From: Escherichia coli 042
GTDB lineage: Bacteria > Pseudomonadota > Gammaproteobacteria > Enterobacterales > Enterobacteriaceae
Assembly (NCBI RefSeq): GCF_000027125.1
Contig: NC_017626.1
Strand: one strand, 5' to 3'
Length of the DNA stretch: 64,000 nt
Positions 14,704 through 46,711 of this stretch are shown piece by piece. Under the pieces are notes generated by a model that had not been told where the DNA came from, did not search any database, and was given only the letters and a program-made list of their open reading frames with translations. The stretch's first letter is position 1, and the number at the start of each line of letters is the position of its first letter. A program made the translations under genes and the position numbers.

Positions 14704-17676
14704 TTACCAGTGCACTCCAATGGTGAGAAACGCGTTGTTGCGCTCTCCGTTACGTTGATTAATTGCCTTAAAGGTATGTTGATACTCGACGCCGAGACTG
14801 ACTTTGTGCGGCCAGGCGTCGTAGTGCGTCTCGCCGGTCCAGATATTCCAGCGGACCCCGACACCGCCAAGCTGCGCGCCCTGAGTGCCTTTATCACGAT
14901 AACCGTTGTCCTGAACGTGAGCGTAAGGCTCAATAGTCTGTCCGTTCGCCACCTTCTGATGCCAGCTGACGCGATAATCTGCCGTCCACGCCTGAATATC
15001 CTGGCGGACATATTGCGCCGCATCGAGGTACAGGTTTTGGGCAAACCAGCCTGAACCGTTCGGGTGCCATTCATCGCTGTATTTGCCGCCATTAAAGAAT
15101 GAGGCGCTGGCGCGCAGCATGGTATCGGATGCGCCATTTTGCCCGTTCAGCGGCAACTGCTGTTCGACGGCGAGGAAAAAGATCTGATCGCGCAGCGGCT
15201 TCCAGCGCAGACCGGTGCCGGACATCGGATTTTTCACCGGCATCATCACCCCGTTTTCTCCGGTATCGGCAAATACACGGCTGTAAACCGAGAGCAGGTC
15301 GCCTTCCAGCAGCATATTGCGTCCGATGCGGTACTCGGCTTCCAGTTGCCCGTAGCTACGATAGCTTTTCCCTGGCGCTGCGCCGCCGACATTATTGTTA
15401 GCGGTACTCATCGCGCCGGAACGCAAGCCGATGGAAGAATCGAAACTGAACGTCCAGCGGCGACCGACCTCCTCATGCAGACGGCGGAAATTGAAGCGTT
15501 GCTGATTTTGCTCTGGGGTCAGTGGGGTTATCAGCGCCTGATTATCAATGTCATCAATCACCAGCCGGGCGTAGTGCTGCGTCGCAGGCATGTCATCCAG
15601 ACGCTGGTTCACGTAGGCCAGTTGTCGGATAAGTGCCGGATCGTCCGGTAGCCCTTTATGCGCCTGTTCGAGCATTTCCCGCGACTGTGCGATATCACCG
15701 CTATCCCACAAGGCGTAACCGAGCGCTGCCTGGGTGTTGCTATTATTCGGCTCCAGTTCCAGCGCGGCGCGCAAATCACTCACTGCCGCTGGGACATTAT
15801 GACGTTGGCGATAAATTGTCGCCCGCGCAACGTAAGCGTTGGCAGAAGGCGCAATATTGATTGAGCGCGTGAGATCGTTCAGTGCGAGTTCCGGCTGACC
15901 AGGAATGTAACGTTGCGCATGCAGCCACCAGTAGAGGGCATTGTTTCCCAGCCCACGTTGTTCTGCCTGCTGAAGCCAGCGATCGCGAGCCGCACCATTT
16001 CCTGCCGCCTGGGCGGTATTGGCAGCAGCAAGCAGATCCTCATTGCTCATGTCGTGAAGACTGATTTTCTGCCAGGCCGCCAGTGCGGTGGCGTAGTCCT
16101 CAACCTGATACGCTTGATAGGCTACCGCACGATGTTGCCAGGCGTTCGGTTGTCGTTGTTCGGCCTGAAGCCATGCATACAACGCCACACCGGGTAGCGT
16201 GTCCCGATAACACTTTGCCAGACGGTTCCAGGCGGCGGCATCGTAGGAAGGCGACATATCGCCCAGCAAGCGAACTATTGCCGGGCAATTATCTGCAATA
16301 CCCGGCAACTGACTTTGCCACTGACGTTGCTCCGCCAGCGGTAAGGGTTTCGATAAAATCGCCACCTTCGCCGGCGTTGCCAGGTAAGGATGACTTTCCA
16401 GCAGAGACGCCAGTCGCGCCATTAAAGTCTGGCTGACACGCGCATCGCCCTGGAAAGGATAGCGTTGCAGCAATAAATCGGCAGCTTCGCGTGACTGCTC
16501 GTTCTGCATCAGTTGCCAGGTCAGTTGATCCAGGCGGGTAAGATTTGCCGGTTCTTGCTGATACAGCAATCGTGCCAGACGCAGAGCTTCAGCCTTGTTA
16601 TGGGTCGCTACGCTAACGGTATAACGCTCCTCAAGCATTTCATTGGCGGGGAGGGTGGCGAGCAGTTTTTGCGCTGCGTCGTACTGACCTTCTTTTAACA
16701 GCACCGGTAGCGTCGCGCCAACAACATACTGGCGGTTGTCGGCAAACTGTACCGTATAATTCGCCAACGCCTGAACGGGGTTGCCGCTGTATTTAGATAA
16801 CAGATAGAGCCAACTTTTCTCTTGTGCGTCCGTGGTAAATAGCGGAGTATTTTCAATGAGATAACGCTGGAGGCGTGCTTTTTCGTCACGATAAGCCAGC
16901 GCGGTCGCGTAAGTAATATATGACTGCGGATCGGTGAAGATCCCCTGTGATTGCAGCGCCAGGATCCGATCGTCCAGCTGCCCGGCAAGAAGCACATCAA
17001 ACCACTGGCGGCGTTCTGCCGCGCTTAATGTGTTCTGCTGGCGTGCTTCATTGTATAGCGTATCTGCCTGGGACCATTGCTTCAGGTAGATTGCCCGTTG
17101 CAGCAGATCGGTTCGCAGCGTTTTTCCTTCCGGCGATGCAGCAAACGTCGCATCGTTCAGTTGCGCTCTGGCGACAGGTAATTGTGCCAGCCGCAGGGCA
17201 TTCTGCCCAACTTCACTGCGACAACGCAGGGTCGGCGCAGCATCGCACGCTTTTTGCTGGGCAAGCAGTTCTTCAACTGTCGTAACGCTTTTCACTTCAA
17301 CTGGAATAGCCGCCAGACTGCGCTCAAGTCGGGCATCTCCTGGGTGACGTTTCAGTTGATCCTCAAGCAACAGCCGCGCCCGGTCATCATGACCAAAATA
17401 GCGATAGGCTTCCGCAAGGTATAAAGCCAGCGGAATATTATCCGGCACCTGCTGGTGTATATATTCAAATTCGCGGATGGCGGTTGCTTCGTCGTTATTT
17501 TTCTGTGCCTTCAGCGCCTTATCGAGACGGGGATAAATAACAAAATGGCGATAATCGCTCAGCCCCAGCTCTTCTGCGCTGGTGCCGATATTGTCTGCGA
17601 GTGCGCTGGTACTCAATAAAGACGTCAGCAGTAAACCAGACCATCCGATGACGCGATTAAGGTTATTCTCCTTCAT
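14704..17676 (-). CDS. nfrA: outer membrane TPR-repeat protein NfrA (phage N4 adsorption protein A)
   Basis: ORF 14704..17697; likely start MKENNLNRVIGWSGLLL (990 aa); TPR-rich N-terminal part and beta-rich C-terminus ending in F/W. Confidence 0.85.
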   Translation of the reverse strand: MKENNLNRVIGWSGLLLTSLLSTSALADNIGTSAEELGLSDYRHFVIYPRLDKALKAQKNNDEATAIREFEYIHQQVPDNIPLALYLAEAYRYFGHDDRARLLLEDQLKRHPGDARLERSLAAIPVEVKSVTTVEELLAQQKACDAAPTLRCRSEVGQNALRLAQLPVARAQLNDATFAASPEGKTLRTDLLQRAIYLKQWSQADTLYNEARQQNTLSAAERRQWFDVLLAGQLDDRILALQSQGIFTDPQSYITYATALAYRDEKARLQRYLIENTPLFTTDAQEKSWLYLLSKYSGNPVQALANYTVQFADNRQYVVGATLPVLLKEGQYDAAQKLLATLPANEMLEERYTVSVATHNKAEALRLARLLYQQEPANLTRLDQLTWQLMQNEQSREAADLLLQRYPFQGDARVSQTLMARLASLLESHPYLATPAKVAILSKPLPLAEQRQWQSQLPGIADNCPAIVRLLGDMSPSYDAAAWNRLAKCYRDTLPGVALYAWLQAEQRQPNAWQHRAVAYQAYQVEDYATALAAWQKISLHDMSNEDLLAAANTAQAAGNGAARDRWLQQAEQRGLGNNALYWWLHAQRYIPGQPELALNDLTRSINIAPSANAYVARATIYRQRHNVPAAVSDLRAALELEPNNSNTQAALGYALWDSGDIAQSREMLEQAHKGLPDDPALIRQLAYVNQRLDDMPATQHYARLVIDDIDNQALITPLTPEQNQQRFNFRRLHEEVGRRWTFSFDSSIGLRSGAMSTANNNVGGAAPGKSYRSYGQLEAEYRIGRNMLLEGDLLSVYSRVFADTGENGVMMPVKNPMSGTGLRWKPLRDQIFFLAVEQQLPLNGQNGASDTMLRASASFFNGGKYSDEWHPNGSGWFAQNLYLDAAQYVRQDIQAWTADYRVSWHQKVANGQTIEPYAHVQDNGYRDKGTQGAQLGGVGVRWNIWTGETHYDAWPHKVSLGVEYQHTFKAINQRNGERNNAFLTIGVHW

Positions 17677-19900
17677 TTTCGGACTCCAGTTGCGCAACCT
17701 GTTCTGTGTTTAAACCTGCTTTGAGTAATAGTGATTGCATCGAAACTTGTAATTCGCGTTGAATTGTCAGGACGCGATCCAACGTTTCCTGGCTGATAAC
17801 GCCTTCGGTGACCAAAAACTTGCCGAGCGGCAGAGAACTGCGTTCATGGCGCAATAACAACACGTTAATTGCTGAACGATTAATATGACCGAGCGTGGTC
17901 AGTATTTCGGCGAACAGGAACTGATGCGGCACATATTGCCGCCAGATTTCACCGGCCTGCTGTTCCGTGAGCCACTGATGCTGAACCGCATTGTACAACA
18001 TTGCCCGCGGATCGTGACCGCGTCGGCGCGCATACCAGTGGCGTAACCCCGTGACAATTTGTCCCCGCAGAACAATGACGTAACGCACTTTGCGTCCGAC
18101 TTTACGCGTCAGGGCCGCCAGCGAAACCGGGTCAATACCATCTTCACTGCCGACAATTAACTCATCATTTTCCAGACGCAGCGGCAGCACTGCATAATGC
18201 AGCGCCACGGAGGCCGGCATTTCGGCAATCAGTGATGAAGGGATCTGCCAGGCGTCGATCGACTCCCACGCCACGCCGTTTTGCTCTGCCAGCGCCTGTG
18301 CCAGCTGTTCGGCGCTAATCAGCCCCTGCATCAGCATTGAACCGCCCAGGCGTAGACCTTCGACGCGATTACGCAGTGCTGTATCGAGTTGTTCTTCAGT
18401 GATGACCTGATTTTCCAGCAGGATTTGACCTAACGGACGCAACGAGCGGGTATCGCCAGTCACGCTGGGGAAGTCATGCGTTGTTTTATCCCACGCGACA
18501 CGACGTGGATCGCCGTGTTGAAGTACCTGTTTTAACGCGCGCCAGTTGGCCATGAAGTTAATCAGGTTGCCCCAGAAAAGACGCAGGACAGATAGCAGCC
18601 CCTGCGTCAGGCCGTAGTAGCCAGTAACGAAAATCACCCGCTGCACGATGCGGTTAATCATCAAGCCAAAGTTTAGCCACAGCAGAGTCATTAACCATGC
18701 GCTGCCGCTGAAAATAGAAAGGAAATGCCAGGCATCGGGCCACAAACTTTCATACGCCAGCAACAGCAAAAGCTGGATCATCACCAGCATCGCGAGGAAG
18801 CTGACAAAGTTACTGATTGCCCCTTTGCGGTCGCGCCAGAGAAAGTAGTTCAGCGTCAGACTGGAGGTCCATTTGTGGGTTTTAAAGCCCTGGAAAACAA
18901 TGCCGATGATCCAGCGAGATTTTTGTCGAACCGCAGTCGAAAAGGTATCGGGGAAATATTCGCGCACGCAGATCATGTTTGACGTCCGCGCGTGCTGTAA
19001 AAATTTACGCTGCTCGCGTTCTTTGGCTTCGTCCACCACCGGAAAACGGACAAAAATTTCCGTCATACCTTTTTCTTTCAGGCGGAAACCAATGTCGTAA
19101 TCTTCAGTAAGACTCTGCACGTCGAAAGCAATACCATCACCGTCAGCTAACAGTGCGGTCACGGCGCGGCGGCTGAAACAAGTACCGACGCCTGCGCTGG
19201 GCACCTGTCCGGCGAGGGCTTCACGCACCGGAACATCTTTGCCATGCAGTTCTGAAAACTCATCAATGTAAGTCATGCTGGTGAAGTGCGTCCATTCGCG
19301 TTCGAATGGGTATACCGGGATCTGAATCAGATCTTTACGCTCGACCAGATAGTTGAACAGACGCAATTCCATCGGTGAAATTACGTCTTCGGCGTCATGC
19401 AGAATAAAACCAGCAAAAGCGAAATTGGCGCTACGCTCAAACTGGGTGATGGCGTCCAGCACGTTGTTCAGGCAGTCGGCTTTGCTGGTGGGGCCAGGAC
19501 GCGCGCAGACTACCTTATGCACGTTTGGGAAGCGAGCGCACACTTCGTCAACATCACGCTGAGTATCGGGGTCGTTGGGGTAGGTGCCAACAAAGATATG
19601 ATAGTTTTCATAGTCGAGCGTGGTCGCCGCCAGCTCGGCCATATTGCCGATGACGCCCGTTTCATTCCACGCCGGAACCATAATCGCTAACGGTTTTTCA
19701 TCTGGTTTATACAGTTCGCGGTAACTCATTCGCGGGTAGCGGCGATAAACACTCAACTTGCGTTTAATGCGGCGTACCCAGTAGACGACATCAATAAAAA
19801 AATCGTCCAGCCCGCTGATGAACATGATGACCGCTAACGTTATCGCGATTACTTTTAAGCCGTAGAGCCAGGTAGCAAAAACATCAAGAAGCCAGTCCAC
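17663..19900 (-). CDS. nfrB: inner membrane glycosyltransferase NfrB (phage N4 adsorption protein B)
   Basis: 745 aa ORF, family-2 glycosyltransferase-like N-terminal region with TM segments; overlaps nfrA start. Confidence 0.9.
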   Translation of the reverse strand: MDWLLDVFATWLYGLKVIAITLAVIMFISGLDDFFIDVVYWVRRIKRKLSVYRRYPRMSYRELYKPDEKPLAIMVPAWNETGVIGNMAELAATTLDYENYHIFVGTYPNDPDTQRDVDEVCARFPNVHKVVCARPGPTSKADCLNNVLDAITQFERSANFAFAGFILHDAEDVISPMELRLFNYLVERKDLIQIPVYPFEREWTHFTSMTYIDEFSELHGKDVPVREALAGQVPSAGVGTCFSRRAVTALLADGDGIAFDVQSLTEDYDIGFRLKEKGMTEIFVRFPVVDEAKEREQRKFLQHARTSNMICVREYFPDTFSTAVRQKSRWIIGIVFQGFKTHKWTSSLTLNYFLWRDRKGAISNFVSFLAMLVMIQLLLLLAYESLWPDAWHFLSIFSGSAWLMTLLWLNFGLMINRIVQRVIFVTGYYGLTQGLLSVLRLFWGNLINFMANWRALKQVLQHGDPRRVAWDKTTHDFPSVTGDTRSLRPLGQILLENQVITEEQLDTALRNRVEGLRLGGSMLMQGLISAEQLAQALAEQNGVAWESIDAWQIPSSLIAEMPASVALHYAVLPLRLENDELIVGSEDGIDPVSLAALTRKVGRKVRYVIVLRGQIVTGLRHWYARRRGHDPRAMLYNAVQHQWLTEQQAGEIWRQYVPHQFLFAEILTTLGHINRSAINVLLLRHERSSLPLGKFLVTEGVISQETLDRVLTIQRELQVSMQSLLLKAGLNTEQVAQLESENEGE

Positions 19901-20236
19901 ACAAAAACCTTACATTAACGCTGGTTATGTTTAGGGTGGCGTATATTAAGGTTTTTTATGAATTGTGACAGCTTTTTACCATTAATAGGTATGACTATTG
20001 CGGCACGTTATTTTTACACTGGTTATAAAAGTTGCCGTTTGCGTAGAATGTAGACAAAAGCGTGGTGTCAAGGAGGGGCGGTAAACGTCATAGTGAAGAG
20101 GAGTGGTGGCACCGATCAGGTCATCATGTAGTGTAAGCGTCTGGAGGAGGTGAGCAGGGGAGATCATTTTCCCCGTGCTGAACAAAAAGACGGCGTTGCT
20201 GTGGGTACAGGAAGGCTAACTTCATTTCTCTTTAGA

Positions 20237-20773
20237 TTATTTAAGTTTAATATTCAACCAGGAAATAAAGAACGTTAAAATAACAAAGGAAAAAACAATC
20301 AAAGAGACATTCCTGAAAAATACGTGCTCATAAAAAAGATAAAAAACGTACAAAATTGGGCACGCAACTTTCAGGACGTTTATATGTTTAGAATTCTCTT
20401 TATCTTTAAAGTTAAAATTACATAAAAATATAAAGAAATATGAAAGCATGGCTGAAAACATCATTGATAAGGCGCGATATGGCAGTCCTGAATTAAAGGT
20501 TTCGACTCCTAATAATATTGTCGATAGCGTTGCAATTATAATTGCCACTTTTTTACTAGAGGTGAAAGTAACGACAAAAAATATCAATGATATAAATAAG
20601 AAAGAAAAAAATATGTAAATATTTGTTGATATATGTACTTTATGAGGAACTGTAAAATAGGTATAACTGATTGTAATTATGATGGTAATTATTCTGTATA
20701 GCATGCATGCTAACAGGCCAATCAGTAGTTTGTTCGCAAATTTATAAGGGGATTCGCTATTGGTTGATTGCAT
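20237..20773 (-). CDS. hypothetical multi-pass membrane protein (low GC, island-borne)
   Basis: 178 aa ORF dominated by I/L/F/V stretches consistent with ~5 TM helices; strongly AT-rich codon usage unlike flanking core genes. Confidence 0.6.
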   Translation of the reverse strand: MQSTNSESPYKFANKLLIGLLACMLYRIITIIITISYTYFTVPHKVHISTNIYIFFSFLFISLIFFVVTFTSSKKVAIIIATLSTILLGVETFNSGLPYRALSMMFSAMLSYFFIFLCNFNFKDKENSKHINVLKVACPILYVFYLFYEHVFFRNVSLIVFSFVILTFFISWLNIKLK

Positions 20774-20837
20774 GGTTATTATGCTCTTGAATTGTGTATT
20801 TTATTGGAATGTTTCTTGGTTAACTAAAACAATGCAT

Positions 20838-21266
20838 TTAATAGGTGGTGGTGTAAATATCAATGTCATACTCATTATCACAGACTACTATTACTCTACG
20901 AGTTATGTCAAAAAATAACGTTAAATCATAGGTTCCCTGTTCTCTGAAAATACTCTGCGCAAATGACGTGAAATTATTCCCATTTATAACTATTTTTACT
21001 TTACCTTCATAGATAAGCCAGCAACGAAAACATTCAGCTGTACCAGATAATGTCACTATCTGACTGATTAGAAGATTTATATTTACCGGATGAGGTAAAA
21101 AAAGTCTGTCGTTGAGGCAATCAATATTATGTGTTTGATGAAACTCTTTTCTCATTAATGAAGAGTTATCATATAGCAGGGTTATACTAAACGAGTCAAT
21201 TCCGTCAAGCTTTTGCATAAATTTGTTTGCTTTATAAATAAGCAACTTTGCTTGTGTTTTTGTCAT
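20838..21266 (-). CDS. hypothetical protein (island-borne, candidate orphan immunity protein)
   Basis: 142 aa ORF, AT-rich, tightly spaced with neighbours on the same strand. Confidence 0.5.
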   Translation of the reverse strand: MTKTQAKLLIYKANKFMQKLDGIDSFSITLLYDNSSLMRKEFHQTHNIDCLNDRLFLPHPVNINLLISQIVTLSGTAECFRCWLIYEGKVKIVINGNNFTSFAQSIFREQGTYDLTLFFDITRRVIVVCDNEYDIDIYTTTY

Positions 21267-21293
21267 GATGGTGATCTTTTATGCAAGGGGGAA

Positions 21294-21740
21294 TTATTGG
21301 AATTCAAATGTTTTATATTCCTCTGTAATCATCTTTAAACTTAACATAGCCATGTCTCGGGTATCTTCATCATCAGATTGTAGAGAAATATTTAATCCTT
21401 TAATTAAGGTGTTATCGGGAAAAGCCATTGCCAATAATGTATACCAACATCGGACACTTTTTATTGTCAGAGGATTTTCCAGTATGTTGGCGATATTTGA
21501 AGCTATAATGTTTTTATCACACTTGTACAAAAAATCTTCGACCAACTGATATACACCGAAGCCATCACCTTCCCCAAACGATTGTAAAAATAACGGTATG
21601 GCTTCTTCAGCAGGATTTGCAGAAAAATAAAGCCTTACATTGTTATATTTATTGATAAGTTCCTGAGTGATGTCATAATCATTTGGCATAGGTTGGTTTA
21701 GAGCAAGGAATGCTAATGCTTCTTTTTTAGTCATATTCAT
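21294..21740 (-). CDS. hypothetical protein (island-borne, candidate orphan immunity protein)
   Basis: 148 aa ORF, AT-rich, 27 bp from upstream and downstream ORFs. Confidence 0.5.
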   Translation of the reverse strand: MNMTKKEALAFLALNQPMPNDYDITQELINKYNNVRLYFSANPAEEAIPLFLQSFGEGDGFGVYQLVEDFLYKCDKNIIASNIANILENPLTIKSVRCWYTLLAMAFPDNTLIKGLNISLQSDDEDTRDMAMLSLKMITEEYKTFEFQ

Positions 21741-21767
21741 AATGGTTAATATTGCTTGCTGGAAGAA

Positions 21768-22313
21768 TTAAGGTAAAAATGGTTCATAGACAGAATTAAA
21801 TAGGAAGTCTTGTTTCCAGATAACTTTATCATGAAAAAGAGATTTGGCTTGATGCGTATAAAGATTATGAGGATAAATAGTTTCTCCACCATAAATGATG
21901 TTCTTTCCCGTTACACCGGAGAATTCATTGGCTATAATCTGTCGTTTAAGCCAGTGAATGACTTTACATAAGCATATTAATTTATCCTTAGAATCAGTTG
22001 TGTTAATTTCAGTAAGTTGTAAAATCTTTTCCCCATTATACTCAACTAAATGCCCCGGCTTTATTTCAATTCAACCACAATAACGATCAATGCTACTAAA
22101 CTTTATTCTTCTATTGTTAGGTTTAATGCTGGGCATAAGATAAATTCGATGTGCTACGGCAGGGATCTTTTCTGTTAAGACATTTAATTGCTTAGAGTAT
22201 TCATCTTGTAGTGTAAACCAAATTGAATGTAATTTGTATTTTGAGGCTACAATCGCGAGCCAATTAGACAGTTCCTCGTTCGTGCAAAAAACATTTATCC
22301 TGGCAGTTGCCAT
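21768..22313 (-). pseudogene. hypothetical gene interrupted by an in-frame TGA (80-codon ORF plus ~100 stop-free codons in the same frame)
   Basis: ORF 22071..22313 ends at TGA; manual translation of the same frame continues IEIKPGHLVEYNGEKILQ...SVYEPFLP to a TAA at ~21768 with no start codon, which is unlikely by chance in AT-rich DNA. Confidence 0.4.
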
Positions 22314-22346
22314 TCGTAATCCTTTTTATATAAGATTGTGTGAATG

Positions 22347-22556
22347 TCACCGAAACAACTTGATATGAATAAAATAGCTAAAGCGAAATGGATGACGTGT
22401 TACTAAAAAACCATTCTGAAAAGGAAGCCTGAATAAACGCGATGACGAAACTTCCACTCTCCATGTTTCATCAGAAAAATAACTAAATTCGATGTGGTTT
22501 TCATATAATCTCATTTCACGTAAGGTTCCGCTACCATAAGGGACCGCAATCAGGGA
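22347..22556 (-). pseudogene. short remnant ORF abutting the H-repeat end (possible truncated toxin-tip coding sequence)
   Basis: 78-aa ORF 22347..22583 whose 5' end lies inside the H-rpt terminus; the equivalent position next to H-rpt copy 2 holds a toxin-domain fragment. Confidence 0.25.
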
Positions 22557-36831: not shown

Positions 36832-39800
36832 ATGATTGAATGGATTATTCGTCGCTCGGTGGCGAACCGTTTTTTGGTGCTGATGGGCGCGTTGTTTCTG
36901 AGCATCTGGGGCACCTGGACCATCATTAACACGCCAGTGGATGCGCTGCCGGATCTCTCCGATGTGCAGGTGATTATTAAAACCAGCTATCCCGGTCAGG
37001 CACCGCAAATCGTTGAAAATCAGGTGACTTATCCGCTAACCACCACCATGTTGTCGGTGCCTGGCGCGAAGACTGTGCGTGGTTTCTCGCAGTTTGGCGA
37101 CTCTTATGTGTATGTCATTTTCGAAGATGGTACCGATCCGTACTGGGCGCGTTCGCGGGTGCTGGAGTACCTCAACCAGGTACAGGGTAAGCTGCCTGCG
37201 GGAGTCAGCGCCGAGCTGGGGCCAGATGCCACGGGTGTTGGCTGGATCTATGAATATGCACTGGTGGATCGCAGCGGTAAGCACGATCTGGCCGATTTAC
37301 GCTCATTGCAGGACTGGTTTCTCAAATATGAGCTGAAAACCATCCCTGACGTTGCGGAAGTGGCGTCGGTAGGCGGTGTGGTGAAAGAGTATCAGGTGGT
37401 TATCGATCCTCAGCGCCTGGCGCAATATGGCATCAGTCTCGCCGAAGTAAAAAGCGCGCTGGATGCTTCAAACCAGGAAGCGGGCGGTTCGTCGATCGAA
37501 CTGGCGGAAGCGGAATATATGGTGCGCGCCAGCGGCTATCTGCAAACGCTCGACGACTTTAATCACATCGTTTTAAAAGCCAGTGAAAATGGCGTGCCCG
37601 TTTATCTGCGTGATGTTGCGAAGGTCCAGATTGGCCCGGAGATGCGCCGGGGCATTGCCGAACTAAACGGCGAAGGCGAAGTGGCGGGCGGGGTGGTGAT
37701 CCTGCGCTCCGGCAAAAACGCCCGTGAAGTGATCGCCGCCGTGAAGGATAAACTGGAAACGCTGAAAAGTAGTCTGCCGGAAGGCGTGGAGATAGTTACA
37801 ACATACGATCGCAGCCAGCTCATTGACCGCGCCATCGACAACCTCAGCGGCAAGCTACTGGAAGAGTTTATTGTGGTGGCGGTAGTCTGTGCGCTGTTTC
37901 TCTGGCATGTGCGCTCGGCGCTGGTGGCGATTATTTCGTTGCCGCTGGGGTTGTGTATTGCTTTTATTGTCATGCACTTCCAGGGACTGAATGCCAATAT
38001 TATGTCGCTGGGCGGTATTGCGATTGCCGTCGGGGCGATGGTCGATGCCGCTATCGTCATGATCGAGAATGCGCATAAACGGCTGGAAGAGTGGCAGCAC
38101 CAGCATCCTGACGCCACGCTGGATAATAAAACGCGCTGGCAGGTGATCACCGATGCATCTGTTGAAGTAGGCCCGGCGCTGTTTATCAGTCTGCTGATTA
38201 TCACACTGTCGTTTATCCCGATCTTCACCCTGGAAGGGCAGGAAGGGCGTCTGTTTGGCCCGCTGGCGTTCACCAAAACGTATGCGATGGCGGGCGCGGC
38301 GCTGCTGGCGATCGTAGTGATCCCGATCCTGATGGGTTACTGGATCCGTGGCAAAATTCCGCCGGAAAGCAGTAACCCGCTCAATCGCTTTTTGATTCGT
38401 GTTTATCATCCGCTGTTGCTGAAAGTACTGCACTGGCCGAAAACCACGCTGCTGGTGGCAGCGCTTTCGGTGCTGACGGTTCTTTGGCCGCTCAATAAAG
38501 TTGGCGGGGAATTTTTACCGCAGATCAATGAAGGCGACTTGTTGTATATGCCATCGACGCTGCCGGGGATTTCCGCAGCAGAGGCGGCGAGTATGCTGCA
38601 AAAAACCGACAAGCTGATTATGAGCGTACCTGAAGTGGCGCGGGTATTTGGCAAAACCGGGAAAGCGGAAACCGCCACCGATTCTGCTCCGCTGGAGATG
38701 GTAGAAACGACCATCCAGCTTAAGCCACAGGAGCAGTGGCGGCCAGGCATGACAATGGACAAAATCATTGAGGAACTGGATAACACCGTGCGTCTGCCGG
38801 GGCTGGCGAATCTGTGGGTGCCGCCAATTCGTAACCGTATCGATATGCTCTCAACCGGCATTAAAAGCCCCATCGGCATTAAAGTTTCCGGCACTGTGCT
38901 GGCGGATATCGACGCGATGGCTGAGCAAATTGAAGAAGTGGCGCGAACGGTGCCAGGCGTGGCTTCAGCGCTTGCTGAGCGTCTGGAAGGTGGGCGCTAT
39001 ATCAACGTTGAGATTAACCGTGAAAAAGCCGCGCGTTACGGTATGACGGTGGCGGATGTGCAGTTGTTTGTGACTTCTGCGGTGGGCGGGGCGATGGTTG
39101 GCGAAACGGTGGAAGGGATTGCCCGTTATCCAATTAATCTGCGTTATCCGCAAAGCTGGCGCGATAGCCCGCAGGCGCTGCGCCAGCTACCGATCCTGAC
39201 GCCGATGAAGCAGCAAATCACCCTGGCAGACGTGGCCGACGTTAAAGTCTCTACCGGACCGTCGATGCTGAAAACCGAGAATGCGCGCCCGACGAGCTGG
39301 ATTTATATCGATGCCCGCGATCGTGACATGGTGTCGGTGGTTCACGATTTGCAAAAAGCGATAGCTGAAAAAGTGCAGTTAAAACCGGGCACCAGCGTGG
39401 CATTCTCCGGGCAGTTCGAGCTACTGGAGCGCGCCAACCATAAGCTGAAACTCATGGTGCCGATGACGTTGATGATCATCTTCGTGCTGTTGTATCTGGC
39501 GTTCCGTCGGGTGGGCGAAGCGTTGCTGATTATCAGCAGCGTACCGTTTGCGCTGGTGGGCGGCATCTGGTTGCTGTGGTGGATGGGCTTTCATCTTTCT
39601 GTGGCAACGGGCACTGGCTTTATCGCCCTTGCGGGGGTCGCCGCCGAATTTGGCGTGGTGATGCTGATGTATTTACGTCACGCCATAGAGGCCGAGCCGT
39701 CGTTGAATAATCCGCAAACATTCAGCGAGCAGAAGCTGGATGAGGCGTTATATCACGGCGCGGTCCTGCGCGTGCGCCCGAAAGCGATGACGGTGGCGGT

Positions 39801-39975
39801 GATTATCGCCGGTCTGCTGCCGATTCTGTGGGGAACAGGAGCAGGTTCAGAGGTGATGAGCCGGATTGCCGCGCCGATGATTGGCGGCATGATCACCGCG
39901 CCTTTGCTGTCGCTGTTTATTATCCCGGCGGCGTATAAGCTGATGTGGCTGCACCGACATCGGGTACGGAAATAA
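36832..39975 (+). CDS. cusA: RND heavy-metal efflux pump CusA
   Basis: 1047 aa ORF, RND permease with 12 TM segments. Confidence 0.95.
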
Positions 39976-40076
39976 AAGCAGGATACCCGGTTTAACCGTG
40001 TGGATTGTGTCTTGCGACGATGGGCACTAAATGTTAAAAGGTGCCCCTCAACAAAAAAGACACACAGGGGAAAGGC

Positions 40077-41454
40077 GTGAAAAACGCGTCAACCGTATCG
40101 GAAGATACTGCGTCGAATCAAGAGCCGACGCTTCATCGCGGATTACATAACCGTCATATTCAACTGATTGCGCTGGGTGGCGCTATTGGTACAGGTCTGT
40201 TTCTTGGCATTGGCCCGGCGATTCAGATGGCGGGTCCGGCTGTATTGCTGGGCTACGGCGTCGCCGGGATCATCGCTTTCCTGATTATGCGCCAGCTCGG
40301 CGAGATGGTGGTCGAAGAGCCGGTATCCGGTTCATTTGCCCACTTTGCCTATAAATACTGGGGACCGTTTGCGGGCTTCCTCTCTGGCTGGAACTACTGG
40401 GTGATGTTCGTGCTGGTGGGAATGGCAGAGCTGACCGCTGCGGGCATCTATATGCAGTACTGGTTCCCGGATGTTCCAACGTGGATTTGGGCTGCCGCCT
40501 TCTTTATTATCATCAACGCCGTTAACCTGGTGAACGTGCGCTTATATGGCGAAACCGAGTTCTGGTTTGCGCTGATTAAAGTGCTGGCGATCATCGGTAT
40601 GATCGGCTTTGGCCTGTGGCTGCTGTTTTCTGGTCACGGCGGCGAGAAAGCCAGTATCGATAACCTCTGGCGTTACGGTGGTTTTTTTGCCACCGGCTGG
40701 AATGGGCTGATTTTGTCGCTGGCGGTAATTATGTTCTCCTTCGGCGGTCTGGAGCTGATTGGGATTACTGCCGCTGAAGCGCGCGATCCGGAAAAAAGCA
40801 TCCCTAAAGCAGTGAATCAGGTGGTTTATCGCATCCTGCTGTTTTACATCGGTTCACTGGTGGTTTTACTGGCACTCTATCCGTGGGTGGAAGTGAAATC
40901 CAACAGTAGCCCGTTTGTGATGATTTTCCATAATCTCGACAGCAACGTGGTAGCTTCTGCGCTGAACTTCGTCATTCTGGTAGCATCGTTATCGGTGTAT
41001 AACAGCGGGGTTTACTCTAACAGCCGGATGCTGTTTGGCCTTTCTGTGCAGGGTAATGCACCGAAGTTTTTGACTCGCGTCAGCCGTCGCGGCGTGCCGA
41101 TTAACTCGCTGATGCTTTCCGGAGCCATCACTTCGCTGGTGGTGTTAATCAACTATCTGCTGCCGCAAAAAGCGTTTGGTCTGCTGATGGCGCTGGTGGT
41201 AGCAACGCTGCTGTTGAACTGGATTATGAATCTGCCTGGCGCATCTGCGTTTTCGCGCGGCGATGCGACGCCAGGGGCGTGAAACACAGTTTAAGGCACT
41301 GCTTTATCCGTTCGGCAACTATCTTTGCATCGCCTTCCTCGGCATGATTTTGCTGCTGATGTGCACGATGGATGATATGCGCTTGTCAGCGATTCTGTTG
41401 CCGGTGTGGATTGTATTCCTGTTTGTAGCGTTTAAAACGCTGCGTCGGAAATAA
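40077..41454 (+). pseudogene. pheP: phenylalanine-specific permease PheP with apparent +1 frameshift near ~41229
   Basis: APC-family permease split across ORFs 40041..41282 (frame 0) and 41263..41454 (frame +1); total span 1378 bp = 1377+1; frame +1 from ~41230 reads the permease-like ICLAHLRFRAAMRRQGRETQFK...; extra A at atgAatc. Confidence 0.7.
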
Positions 41455-41495
41455 GGCATTCACGCCATATCCGACAAAATGATGTCAACCATCCG

Positions 41496-41532
41496 AAACC
41501 GCTCTCATCCATTCGATAAGAGCGGTTTTTTT
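41496..41532 (+). terminator. rho-independent terminator after pheP
   Basis: Hairpin ccgctct...agagcgg followed by a T7 run, read directly from sequence. Confidence 0.5.
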
Positions 41533-41534
41533 AA

Positions 41535-42830
<1,296 letters not shown>

Positions 42831-42889
42831 TTATGCAAATCAGGAGAATCTGAGGGGAAATAGCCGGGCAGATGCCCGGCAAGAGAGAA

Positions 42890-43543
42890 TTACACTTCGG
42901 TTAAGGTGATGTTTTGCGGCAGACGAGATTTCGGCAGCGTAGCGTTAAAATCTTCAACGCTGTGATGACCCACCGGAACAACCACCAGACTGGTGTAGCC
43001 TTTCTCTTTCAGACCAAATTCTGCATCGAGGATGGCGGCGTCAAAACCTTCGATGGGTACCGCGTCCAGACCCAGCGCCGCCACGCCGAGCAGGAAGTTG
43101 CCGACGTTGAGATAAACCTGTTTTGCCATCCACTCTGCATCATCATGCAGATCTTTACGGTGCATATCAGCGAAGAACTTGCGACCTTTATCGTTCGCGG
43201 CTTTCGCTTCCGGCGTGGCAAAGCGGCCATCAGCATCTTCCTGGTCAACAACCAGCTTCAGCCAGGCATCGTCCATCGCGGTTTTTGCACAGAACACCAC
43301 GACGTGCGAGGCATCAAGTATTTTACGTTCGTTGAACACATAATTACCGGCAGCGGATTTGGCAACACGCGCTTTACCTTCTTCCGTGCTGGCAACAATA
43401 AAATGCCACGGCTGGGAGTTGGTGCTGGATGGGCTGTATTGCAGGAGAGTTTTGATCTGCTCGGCCTGTTCCGGGGTAAGTTTTTTGCTGGCATCAAATG
43501 CCTTAGTGGAATGACGCTTTAAGGCGACAGAAATGATATCCAT
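42890..43543 (-). CDS. nfsB: oxygen-insensitive NAD(P)H nitroreductase NfsB
   Basis: ORF 42890..43594 trimmed to [16 protein letters not shown] start (217 aa). Confidence 0.9.
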
Positions 43544-43636
43544 AAAGACTCCATGTGAAAGTAATTTTGCGTGCCAGCAGATTACAAGGTTCAACGAGAA
43601 ATGGTAAGCGAGAAAAATGCGCTATAGATTTCCGCT

Positions 43637-44005
43637 TTAGCCTGGACGCACTCTTTTTTGATCGCGTTTAGCCAGACCATCAACCACCAGATTCCACGAA
43701 TCGTTGATCAGATCGCGAAGTAACGCTTCGGAGATTTCCTCGCCGGGATACACCGAAATCCAGTGCTTTTTATTCATGTGATACCCTGGCTTAATGCTCG
43801 GGTATATCTGCTGATTTAACAGGGATTTTTGTGGATCGGACTTCAGATTGATAAAGGGGACGTCGCGCAGCTCCGACGACAGCATAAAAATCTTGCCGCC
43901 AATTTTAAAAACATCGAACTCCGGGCCAAAAGGCCAGCAAAGCTCGACAAAGGGTAACTCAAGGGCCAGGCGTTTCGCCGTTTCGTGCAGTGATTGCTTA
44001 TCCAT
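43637..44005 (-). CDS. ybdF: conserved protein YbdF
   Basis: ORF 43637..44125 trimmed to [13 protein letters not shown] start (122 aa). Confidence 0.8.
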
Positions 44006-44069
44006 AAACGTTCCTTTAGGCGAAGGAGAATAAGCAAAGTATGCCGCGAAGTACGGCGATAATCGACGT

Positions 44070-44318
44070 TTAATCCGCCAGCGAGAACCAGCGTCGCCAG
44101 ATAAAGCGCAGAACAAAATACTCAATAGCGCCCAGCACTAAAAACCACAGACAAAACAATAAAGTGTAAAGCTGGCTAAGAACCATCAGATGGAACATGG
44201 TCACCAGTTTTTGTGCCAGCGTCAGCCCCAGTGCGGGGGCGGGCAGCAGCAGGCAAGAAAGGAAAGCCATCAGCAAAATGCCTGCTGCGGTGGTCAAGGT
44301 TTCTAAAGGGTGTTTCAT
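44070..44318 (-). CDS. ybdJ: small inner membrane protein YbdJ
   Basis: 82 aa ORF with two predicted TM segments. Confidence 0.8.
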
Positions 44319-45511: not shown

Positions 45512-45855
45512 TTATGTTGGCGTTTTCTATTCAGTATAGAAGTCGGAGCGGCTGGGCGAGATGCGGAAGTTCTGGAATGCTTCTTTTTTTTGGTGATGGT
45601 GAACTGATTGTGACTGAAGAAGTTTGGCTACTTTTGCAATGTGACAAGTTATGGCAGAGCTGGCTGGTGGCGAAGAATTTTGACGATTGAGGCATGCAGA
45701 AAAATACGGGTTCAGCTTCAGTTGATCAAATGAGGAGTGAGAAGTCCGAAACAGGACTCACTGTATAAATAAACAGCTATTTTGCTGAAGAAGGGTAAGA
45801 TAACGGCGGGTGCCTGAAGCTTTCCGGTTTCAGGTTTACTCTGAGGTCTGGAAAG

Positions 45856-46044
45856 ATGAAGCCCCAGGACGATATTTCTATCAACCCTGGGGCTGCCACT
45901 CCAAACCCAAACAATTTGGATGGTAGTCCCTTCTTCGCATGGAGGCAATATAAACATGCTGACGAAATATGCCCTTGTGGCTGTCATAGTGCTGTGTTTA
46001 ACGGTGCTGGGATTTACGCTTCTGGTCGGAGACTCGCTGTGTGA
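45856..46044 (+). CDS. mokE: mok-like overlapping reading frame of hokE copy 1
   Basis: 62-codon ORF overlapping the hok start in another frame, as in hok/mok/sok loci. Confidence 0.45.
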
Positions 46045-46108
46045 GTTTACGGTGAAGGAACGTAATATTGAGTTTAAGGCTGTTCTCGCTTACGAACCGA
46101 AGAAGTAG
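45956..46108 (+). CDS. hokE: Hok-family small membrane toxin HokE, copy 1
   Basis: [50 protein letters not shown], 50 aa, within ORF 45920..46108. Confidence 0.85.
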
Positions 46109-46243
46109 CCGTTGTGCGGGGAGTAATCCCCGCATATCCGGTTGTCAGGTCAGGGTGGTAAGGCACCTGCTTTACACTTTCGCCCGCGGTCAGCAATGGC
46201 TGCGGGCGATTTCGTTTTACGAACAATAACGAGCGTTGCCAAC

Positions 46244-46711
46244 AGAAGTCCGAAACAGGACTCGCTGTATAAATAAACAGCTATTTTGATAAGGAAGGGT
46301 AAGATAACGGCGGGTGCCTGAAGCTTTCCGGTTTCAGGTTTACTCTGAGGTCTGGAAAGATGAAGCCCCAGGAGATATTTCTATCAACCCTGGGGCTGCC
46401 ACTCCAAACCAGACAATTTGGATGGTAGTCCCTTCTTCGCATGGAGGCAATATAAACATGCTGACGAAATATGCCCTTGTGGCAGTCATAGTGCTGTGTT
46501 TAACGGTGCTGGGATTTACGCTTCTGGTCGGAGACTCGCTGTGTGAGTTTACGGTGAAGGAACGTAATATTGAGTTTAAGGCTGTTCTCGCTTACGAACC
46601 GAAGAAGTAGCCGTTGTGCGGGGAGTAATCCCCGCATATCCGGTTGTCAGGTCAGGGTGGTAAGGCACCTGCTTTACACTTTCGCCCGCGGTCAGTGATG
46701 GCTGCGGGCGA
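46244..46711 (+). repeat. hokE locus tandem duplication, copy 2
   Basis: Near-identical to copy 1 apart from two 1-bp indels in the mok leader region and a few substitutions. Confidence 0.75.
46458..46610 (+). CDS. hokE: Hok-family small membrane toxin, copy 2 (identical protein)
   Basis: Same 50 aa Hok peptide; here part of a longer in-frame ORF 46314..46610 because upstream indels merge the mok leader with the hok frame. Confidence 0.8.

Follow-up and report, generated by a model that had tools for sequence, protein, structure and literature searches.

The question raised by this locus is whether the enteroaggregative strain Escherichia coli 042 (EAEC O44:H18) still encodes a working phenylalanine permease, or whether the interrupted pheP gene of its reference chromosome reflects a sequencing artefact, an unusual but functional protein, or a true pseudogene. 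The locus lies in the window, that is, the whole 64,000-nucleotide stretch of contig NC_017626.1 (assembly GCF_000027125.1) that was analysed here. An earlier note, made from the sequence alone, had recognized the gene as pheP, described its frame as stopping at 41282 with the rest of the protein (ICLAHLRFRAAMRRQGRETQFKALLYPFGNYLC...KTLRRK) continuing in the +1 frame to 41454, and placed a single extra A at atgAatc (~41229). We consider it very probable that this extra base is a genuine, recent and strain-private insertion in the chromosomal pheP of 042, which has become a frameshift pseudogene. The features on which the argument turns are the following.

40077..41282, plus strand: truncated pheP reading frame, 401 codons and a TGA stop, comprising 384 native residues and 17 out-of-frame residues.
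41229..41230, plus strand: the lesion, a one-base A insertion, which is the sole gap in the 37.3-kb alignment with strain GN25.
41230..41454, plus strand: 3' part of pheP, displaced into the +1 frame, codons 385-458 (ICLAHLRFRAAMRRQGRE...KTLRRK) and a TAA stop, from the frame translation.
41263..41454, plus strand: 63-codon ORF starting at ATG (MRRQGRETQF...KTLRRK) within the displaced tail, from the ORF list.

The identity of the gene is established by both score and synteny, in agreement with the name given to it earlier. When compared with the NCBIfam equivalog NF007602 ('phenylalanine transporter'; 458 profile positions, curated cutoff of 851 bits), the truncated ORF obtained 869.6 bits over profile positions 1-384 of 458, and its score with the AroP model was lower (607.2 bits); the intact or repaired allele reached 1041 bits over positions 1-458. 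The gene order cusA-pheP-ybdG-nfsB, as found in the annotated relatives A10 and GN25, is collinear with the window, and both genomes are annotated with an intact 458-aa pheP (WP_000786320.1). Likewise, a 201-base query around the site matched an annotated 'pheP: phenylalanine transporter' in 5,402 of the 5,426 RefSeq complete E. coli genomes. The locus is the same as that of K-12 PheP, a member of the APC superfamily (amino acid transporter family; NF007602 / PRK10249; PF00324, AA_permease), with cusA located upstream and a convergent ybdG downstream. The frameshifted gene is thus a PheP family member by score and synteny which, as encoded, falls short of the full length and of the twelve transmembrane (TM) segments of the family. 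Its coverage of the profile is split rather than continuous: the 63-codon ORF of the tail corresponds to positions 396-458, and positions 385-395 belong to a stretch of the +1 frame that no start codon precedes.

Direct reading of the sequence, together with the ORF list, places the pheP frame between GTG 40077 and a TGA codon at 41280-41282, exactly where the earlier note had it stop. Translation from GTG 40077 yields a product of 401 aa, in which native PheP extends from residue 1 to residue 384, ending in ...ATLLLNWIM, and is followed by NLPGASAFSRGDATPGA (residues 385-401), the 17 wrong codons that separate the insertion from the stop. The remainder of the protein, also as anticipated, is read in the +1 frame from 41230 to a stop at 41452-41454, a segment encoding the end of TM10, a cytoplasmic loop, TM11 and TM12. 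The mechanically generated ORF list begins the pheP frame at GTG 40041, 12 codons upstream of GTG 40077, and the resulting ORF (40041..41282, 413 aa) was found by exact-sequence look-up to be identical to CBG33435.1, 'phenylalanine-specific permease [Escherichia coli 042]'. Since GTG 40077 corresponds to position 1 of the curated PheP profile NF007602 and displays the better Shine-Dalgarno pairing (-6.5 kcal/mol versus -2.4 kcal/mol for GTG 40041), the N-terminus of CBG33435.1 is probably over-extended.

The lesion itself was located by aligning the window with its 65.5-kb counterpart in GN25, which is the closest genome in RefSeq. Over 37,321 columns (window positions 26680-64000), the two sequences differ by 17 mismatches and one gap; being the lone indel in an alignment of this length, the extra A is not a chance feature. 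A base-by-base walk reads actggattatga[A]tctgcc in 042 and ACTGGATTATGATCTGCC in GN25, and the additional base, in a context changing from A to AA, can be either of the two A's at 41229 or 41230, which agrees with the position proposed earlier. As a result, the wild-type codons ATG ATC TGC CTG GCG CAT (M I C L A H) become ATG AAT CTG CCT GGC GCA (M N L P G A). A further effect of the insertion is that bases 41227-41229 now read TGA in the +1 frame, which is consequently open only from 41230. Removing the extra A restores a continuous ORF of 458 codons, as the earlier note had expected, and the product of this repaired gene is identical to WP_000786320.1 of the nearest relatives. When the shift is disregarded, the 042 protein sequence shows no difference from the intact allele of these relatives, either in residues 1-384 or in the displaced residues 385-458. 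Both parts of the gene are undecayed, and the insertion event is therefore recent. Relative to the intact orthologues of the nearest relatives, the reading frame of 042 is disrupted, and this disruption is the derived state. The same base turns a wild-type GATC (a Dam methylation and MutH site, 41226-41232) into GAATC, a change from which no consequence is inferred.

Comparison with relatives also documented several other features of the window. A region of 10.4 kb (16272-26680), in which nfrB and part of nfrA are found together with small hypothetical genes and ISAs1/ISEc1 sequences, is missing from the otherwise nearly identical GN25, in which an IS1 abuts a 5'-truncated nfrA; this absence looks like an IS1-mediated deletion. 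In the window, nfrA (14704-17697) and nfrB (17663-19900) are long uninterrupted ORFs. A 768-bp IS1 (~25204-25971) is inserted inside an ISAs1-family transposase gene, the remaining minus-strand ORF pieces of which occupy 24712-25176 and 26040-26625, and this interrupted gene is adjoined by an intact ISEc1 transposase gene (22561-23697, minus strand). The relative KK19-02 has the second ISAs1 gene, which is devoid of IS1 there but contains an internal stop. Two adjacent paralogous genes with WD40/BNR-like repeats (ORFs 28679-29719 and 29831-30871, minus strand) share 90.8% identity over 728 bp (28607-29333 and 29759-30485), and a gene encoding a PAAR-like domain (28311-28625) lies beside them. 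Finally, two tandem copies of ca. 470 bp (45740-46209 and 46244-46711), 98% identical, each contain a hokE toxin locus, and GN25 is also annotated with two hokE genes at this site.

How far the extra A is distributed beyond 042 was examined in several collections. The best of the 5,402 matching RefSeq genomes aligned with the 201-bp query at 200 of 201 positions, the A being missing, and the nine closest genomes, each at 200/201, were all devoid of it. A 42-base query centred on the insertion, for which a megablast seed is possible only when the insertion is present, found no match in the 5,426 RefSeq complete E. coli genomes. In metagenome contigs, a 37-mer carrying the insertion was matched by none, while the wild-type 36-mer used as a control was matched by 26. 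On these grounds, a lineage-wide or recurrent allele was rejected and, as far as these collections show, the insertion appears to be private to strain 042.

An allele with this distribution could also be an artefact of the 2010 capillary-sequenced reference, the real pheP of 042 being intact at 458 codons. The lesion is an indel of one base and the gene is perfectly conserved apart from it, no other RefSeq complete E. coli genome has it, and the authors of the genome neither annotated nor discussed pheP as a pseudogene, all of which would suit such an error. The sequencing runs available for this allele speak differently. The exact 401-aa product was found on 16 Logan contigs (de novo assemblies of public sequencing runs), and a 40-mer with the extra A is present in contigs from SRR18207507, ERR007507, ERR007651, SRR31383023, ERR14126810 and ERR007508, which were identified by the 401-aa match, as well as from SRR31383025, SRR31383026, SRR18207506 and ERR2720675, which were added by a look-up of the 63-aa ORF. 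These represent at least 10 independent runs from at least five accession series (ERR0075xx/ERR0076xx, ERR2720675, ERR14126810, SRR182075xx and SRR313830xx). The earlier note had named resequencing with one fewer A as the result that would speak against a frameshift; the de novo assemblies of these runs carry the extra A.

The insertion-bearing contigs are 99.86-100% identical to the window, and identity is complete over 2.0-7.2 kb, with the exception of those from SRR31383026 (one mismatch) and ERR14126810 (four mismatches). The longest contig is 100% identical over 37077-44282 and has the 042 alleles at 37404, 41467 and 44182, three positions at which GN25 differs, and the confirming runs are best read, from these matches, as deriving from strain 042 or its derivatives. 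In the ERR14126810 contig, the insertion allele is present, and the differences from the window (39447, 39477, 42063 and 42096) all fall within ca. 150 bp of the contig ends and correspond to alleles found in other E. coli. The contig probably stems from a sample containing more than one strain; less likely, it comes from a recombinant or from a natural relative with the same frameshift.

As the insertion was reproduced by reference-free assemblies, it is a property of the strain rather than a fault of the reference assembly. Nor is this reference prone to indels, with one gap in 37 kb when compared with its nearest relative, and the A to AA context involves no long homopolymer. An assembly error, which the ten runs and the lone gap lead us to regard as essentially excluded, was rejected as extremely unlikely. 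A genuine insertion in the 042 chromosome thus remains the preferred reading.

The insertion is derived and reproducible, and the parts of the protein that are lost have been identified. The intact allele displays 12 hydropathy peaks (Kyte-Doolittle, 19-residue window), with peak 10 at residues 369-387 (LLMALVVATLLLNWIMICL), peak 11 at 412-430 and peak 12 at 434-452. The shift at residue 385 falls inside peak 10, and the ORF as written, which is devoid of peaks 11 and 12, does not reach the twelve TM segments expected for PheP. The estimate of the earlier note, according to which roughly the last two TM segments are lost, was accurate, and can be extended to the last residues of TM10, at its cytoplasmic end, and to the arginine-rich loop RFRAAMRRQGR that connects TM10 to TM11. 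The positive-inside rule and the published topology of PheP, which has 12 spans with both termini inside the cell (N-in/C-in), place this loop in the cytoplasm. In contrast to K-12 PheP, the coding sequence of 042 is therefore split by a one-base insertion, and the 401-aa product contains only 10 of the 12 hydrophobic segments and ends in a nonsense tail of 17 residues. The closest homologue with a solved structure, the lysine-specific permease LysP (PDB 9eyd), aligns over residues 21-424 (E = 7e-78), and the match of the NWIMICLAHLRFR region with AWLGIAISHYRFR indicates that the disruption affects a conserved part of the fold. LysP has another substrate class and is a paralogue, not an orthologue, of PheP, and this comparison serves only to document the conservation of the disrupted region.

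Whether the two parts of the gene might still provide a permease depends in part on the 63-codon ORF of the displaced tail, which is called as a separate gene in Logan assemblies. No Shine-Dalgarno sequence precedes ATG 41263: the 20 nt upstream pair with the anti-Shine-Dalgarno sequence at -1.7 kcal/mol, which is no better than for other ATG triplets within pheP and compares with the -6.5 kcal/mol of the true start at 40077. With such a weak signal, translation of this ORF as a separate protein is unlikely to occur to a useful extent. The exact 63-aa sequence was found in more than 100 index blocks of the protein collection used for the look-up. Among the ten loci examined, those that were not 042-like (a metagenome scaffold, one run assembly and three fragmented GenBank assemblies) were ca. 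97% identical, rich in indels, and had either other lesions or a wild-type site. The idea that these carriers share the 042 insertion was accordingly dismissed.

Two arrangements can be envisaged in which the permease would remain functional. In the first, TM1-10 would suffice as a 5+5 LeuT-fold core; in the second, the protein would work as a split permease, with the 63-aa fragment supplying TM11-12 after re-initiation at ATG 41263. Split permeases such as LacY can reassemble, ten-helix proteins exist in the APC superfamily, and a TM1-10 core is conceivable in principle; these precedents are in favour of both arrangements. The overlap geometry, with ATG 41263 lying 17 nt upstream of the TGA, would allow termination-reinitiation coupling, which is conceivable here in a weak form only. 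The weak pairing upstream of this ATG argues against the split permease, as does the fact that profile positions 385-395, where TM10 ends and the positive loop starts, are contained in neither ORF. The undecayed state of the two fragments would fit a functional permease, but is equally expected for a very recent mutation, and an arrangement private to one strain is difficult to reconcile with a selected architecture. Taken together, we regard a functional permease of either kind as very unlikely. Were it to exist, it would show, in a natural setting, that an APC/LeuT-fold amino acid permease can do without its TM11-12 or receive them in trans.

A further possibility is that full-length PheP is restored at a regulated level by programmed recoding, either through +1 ribosomal frameshifting or through transcriptional slippage. 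From 41230 onwards the +1 frame contains no stop before the natural one, and a change of frame at any point within 41230-41279 would produce a protein of nearly full length. The geometry thus bears a formal likeness to the +1 frameshift of prfB, the downstream part being in the +1 frame. The resemblance stops there: the 042 pheP site is unconserved, and has neither a slippery/stop site of the CUU-UGA type nor a stimulatory internal Shine-Dalgarno sequence. Within 41220-41285, no prfB-type signals were found, that is, no slippery P-site codon next to a stop, hungry or rare codon, and no Shine-Dalgarno sequence ca. 3 nt upstream; the context of the 0-frame stop, GGG GCG TGA A, offers no option for re-pairing. 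Slippage of the RNA polymerase would call for a run of at least eight A or T, and there are only two A's at the site. Programmed frameshifts are, moreover, conserved among orthologues, and the one considered here is absent from 5,426 genomes and confined to one strain, the closest relatives having a plain uninterrupted ORF. Having neither conservation nor signals on its side, recoding by frameshifting or slippage was rejected, and we give it practically no credence.

The reading that we favour thus remains that of a genuine and recent frameshift pseudogene. The one-base insertion shifts the pheP frame at residue 385, and a 401-aa product starting at GTG 40077 would be made, consisting of 384 native residues followed by the 17-residue nonsense tail. 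This product is predicted to be inactive or unstable, with the end of TM10, the positive loop, TM11 and TM12 gone, and to have lost its transport activity, as judged from the protein segments that are missing. Strain K-12 has further routes of phenylalanine import, namely the general aromatic permease AroP and the LIV-I/LS system. Strain 042 may tolerate the loss of PheP for the same reason, with phenylalanine entering the cell via AroP and LIV-I/LS; such a redundant import is the most plausible ground for tolerance by analogy with K-12, and the aroP and LIV-I/LS loci are located outside the window. In the 042 genome paper (PMC2808357), aroP is listed as conserved in Table S2, but so is the frameshifted pheP. 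Table S4 of that paper, a phenotype-array table of compounds on which MG1655 outperformed 042, displays no phenylalanine-related difference, and none would be expected for a redundant transporter.

In PMC2808357, pheP appears only in the supplementary list of core genes, and the text mentions neither pheP nor phenylalanine. A full-text literature search for the pheP frameshift, for EAEC 042 pheP and for the run accessions found no paper on the lesion. Comparable strain-specific frameshifts are nonetheless described in PMC2808357, with efeU in K-12 MG1655 and the RTX gene Ec042-0527-0530. The pheP lesion resembles these cases in that one or a few indels affect an otherwise conserved and undecayed gene, are private to a strain or lineage, and concern a function that is probably redundant; it differs in being unmentioned in that study.

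The pheP of strain 042 is a textbook case of a strain-specific frameshift pseudogene affecting a well-characterised and redundant transporter, with nothing mechanistically new, and its significance beyond annotation is small. CBG33435.1 is a truncated frameshift product that should be treated as a pseudogene, and tblastn-derived core-genome lists, of which Table S2 of PMC2808357 is an example, score pheP as conserved despite its broken frame. The insertion could be used as a simple one-base marker for strain 042 and its derivatives, and metabolic models or transport studies on this strain should not assume a working PheP.
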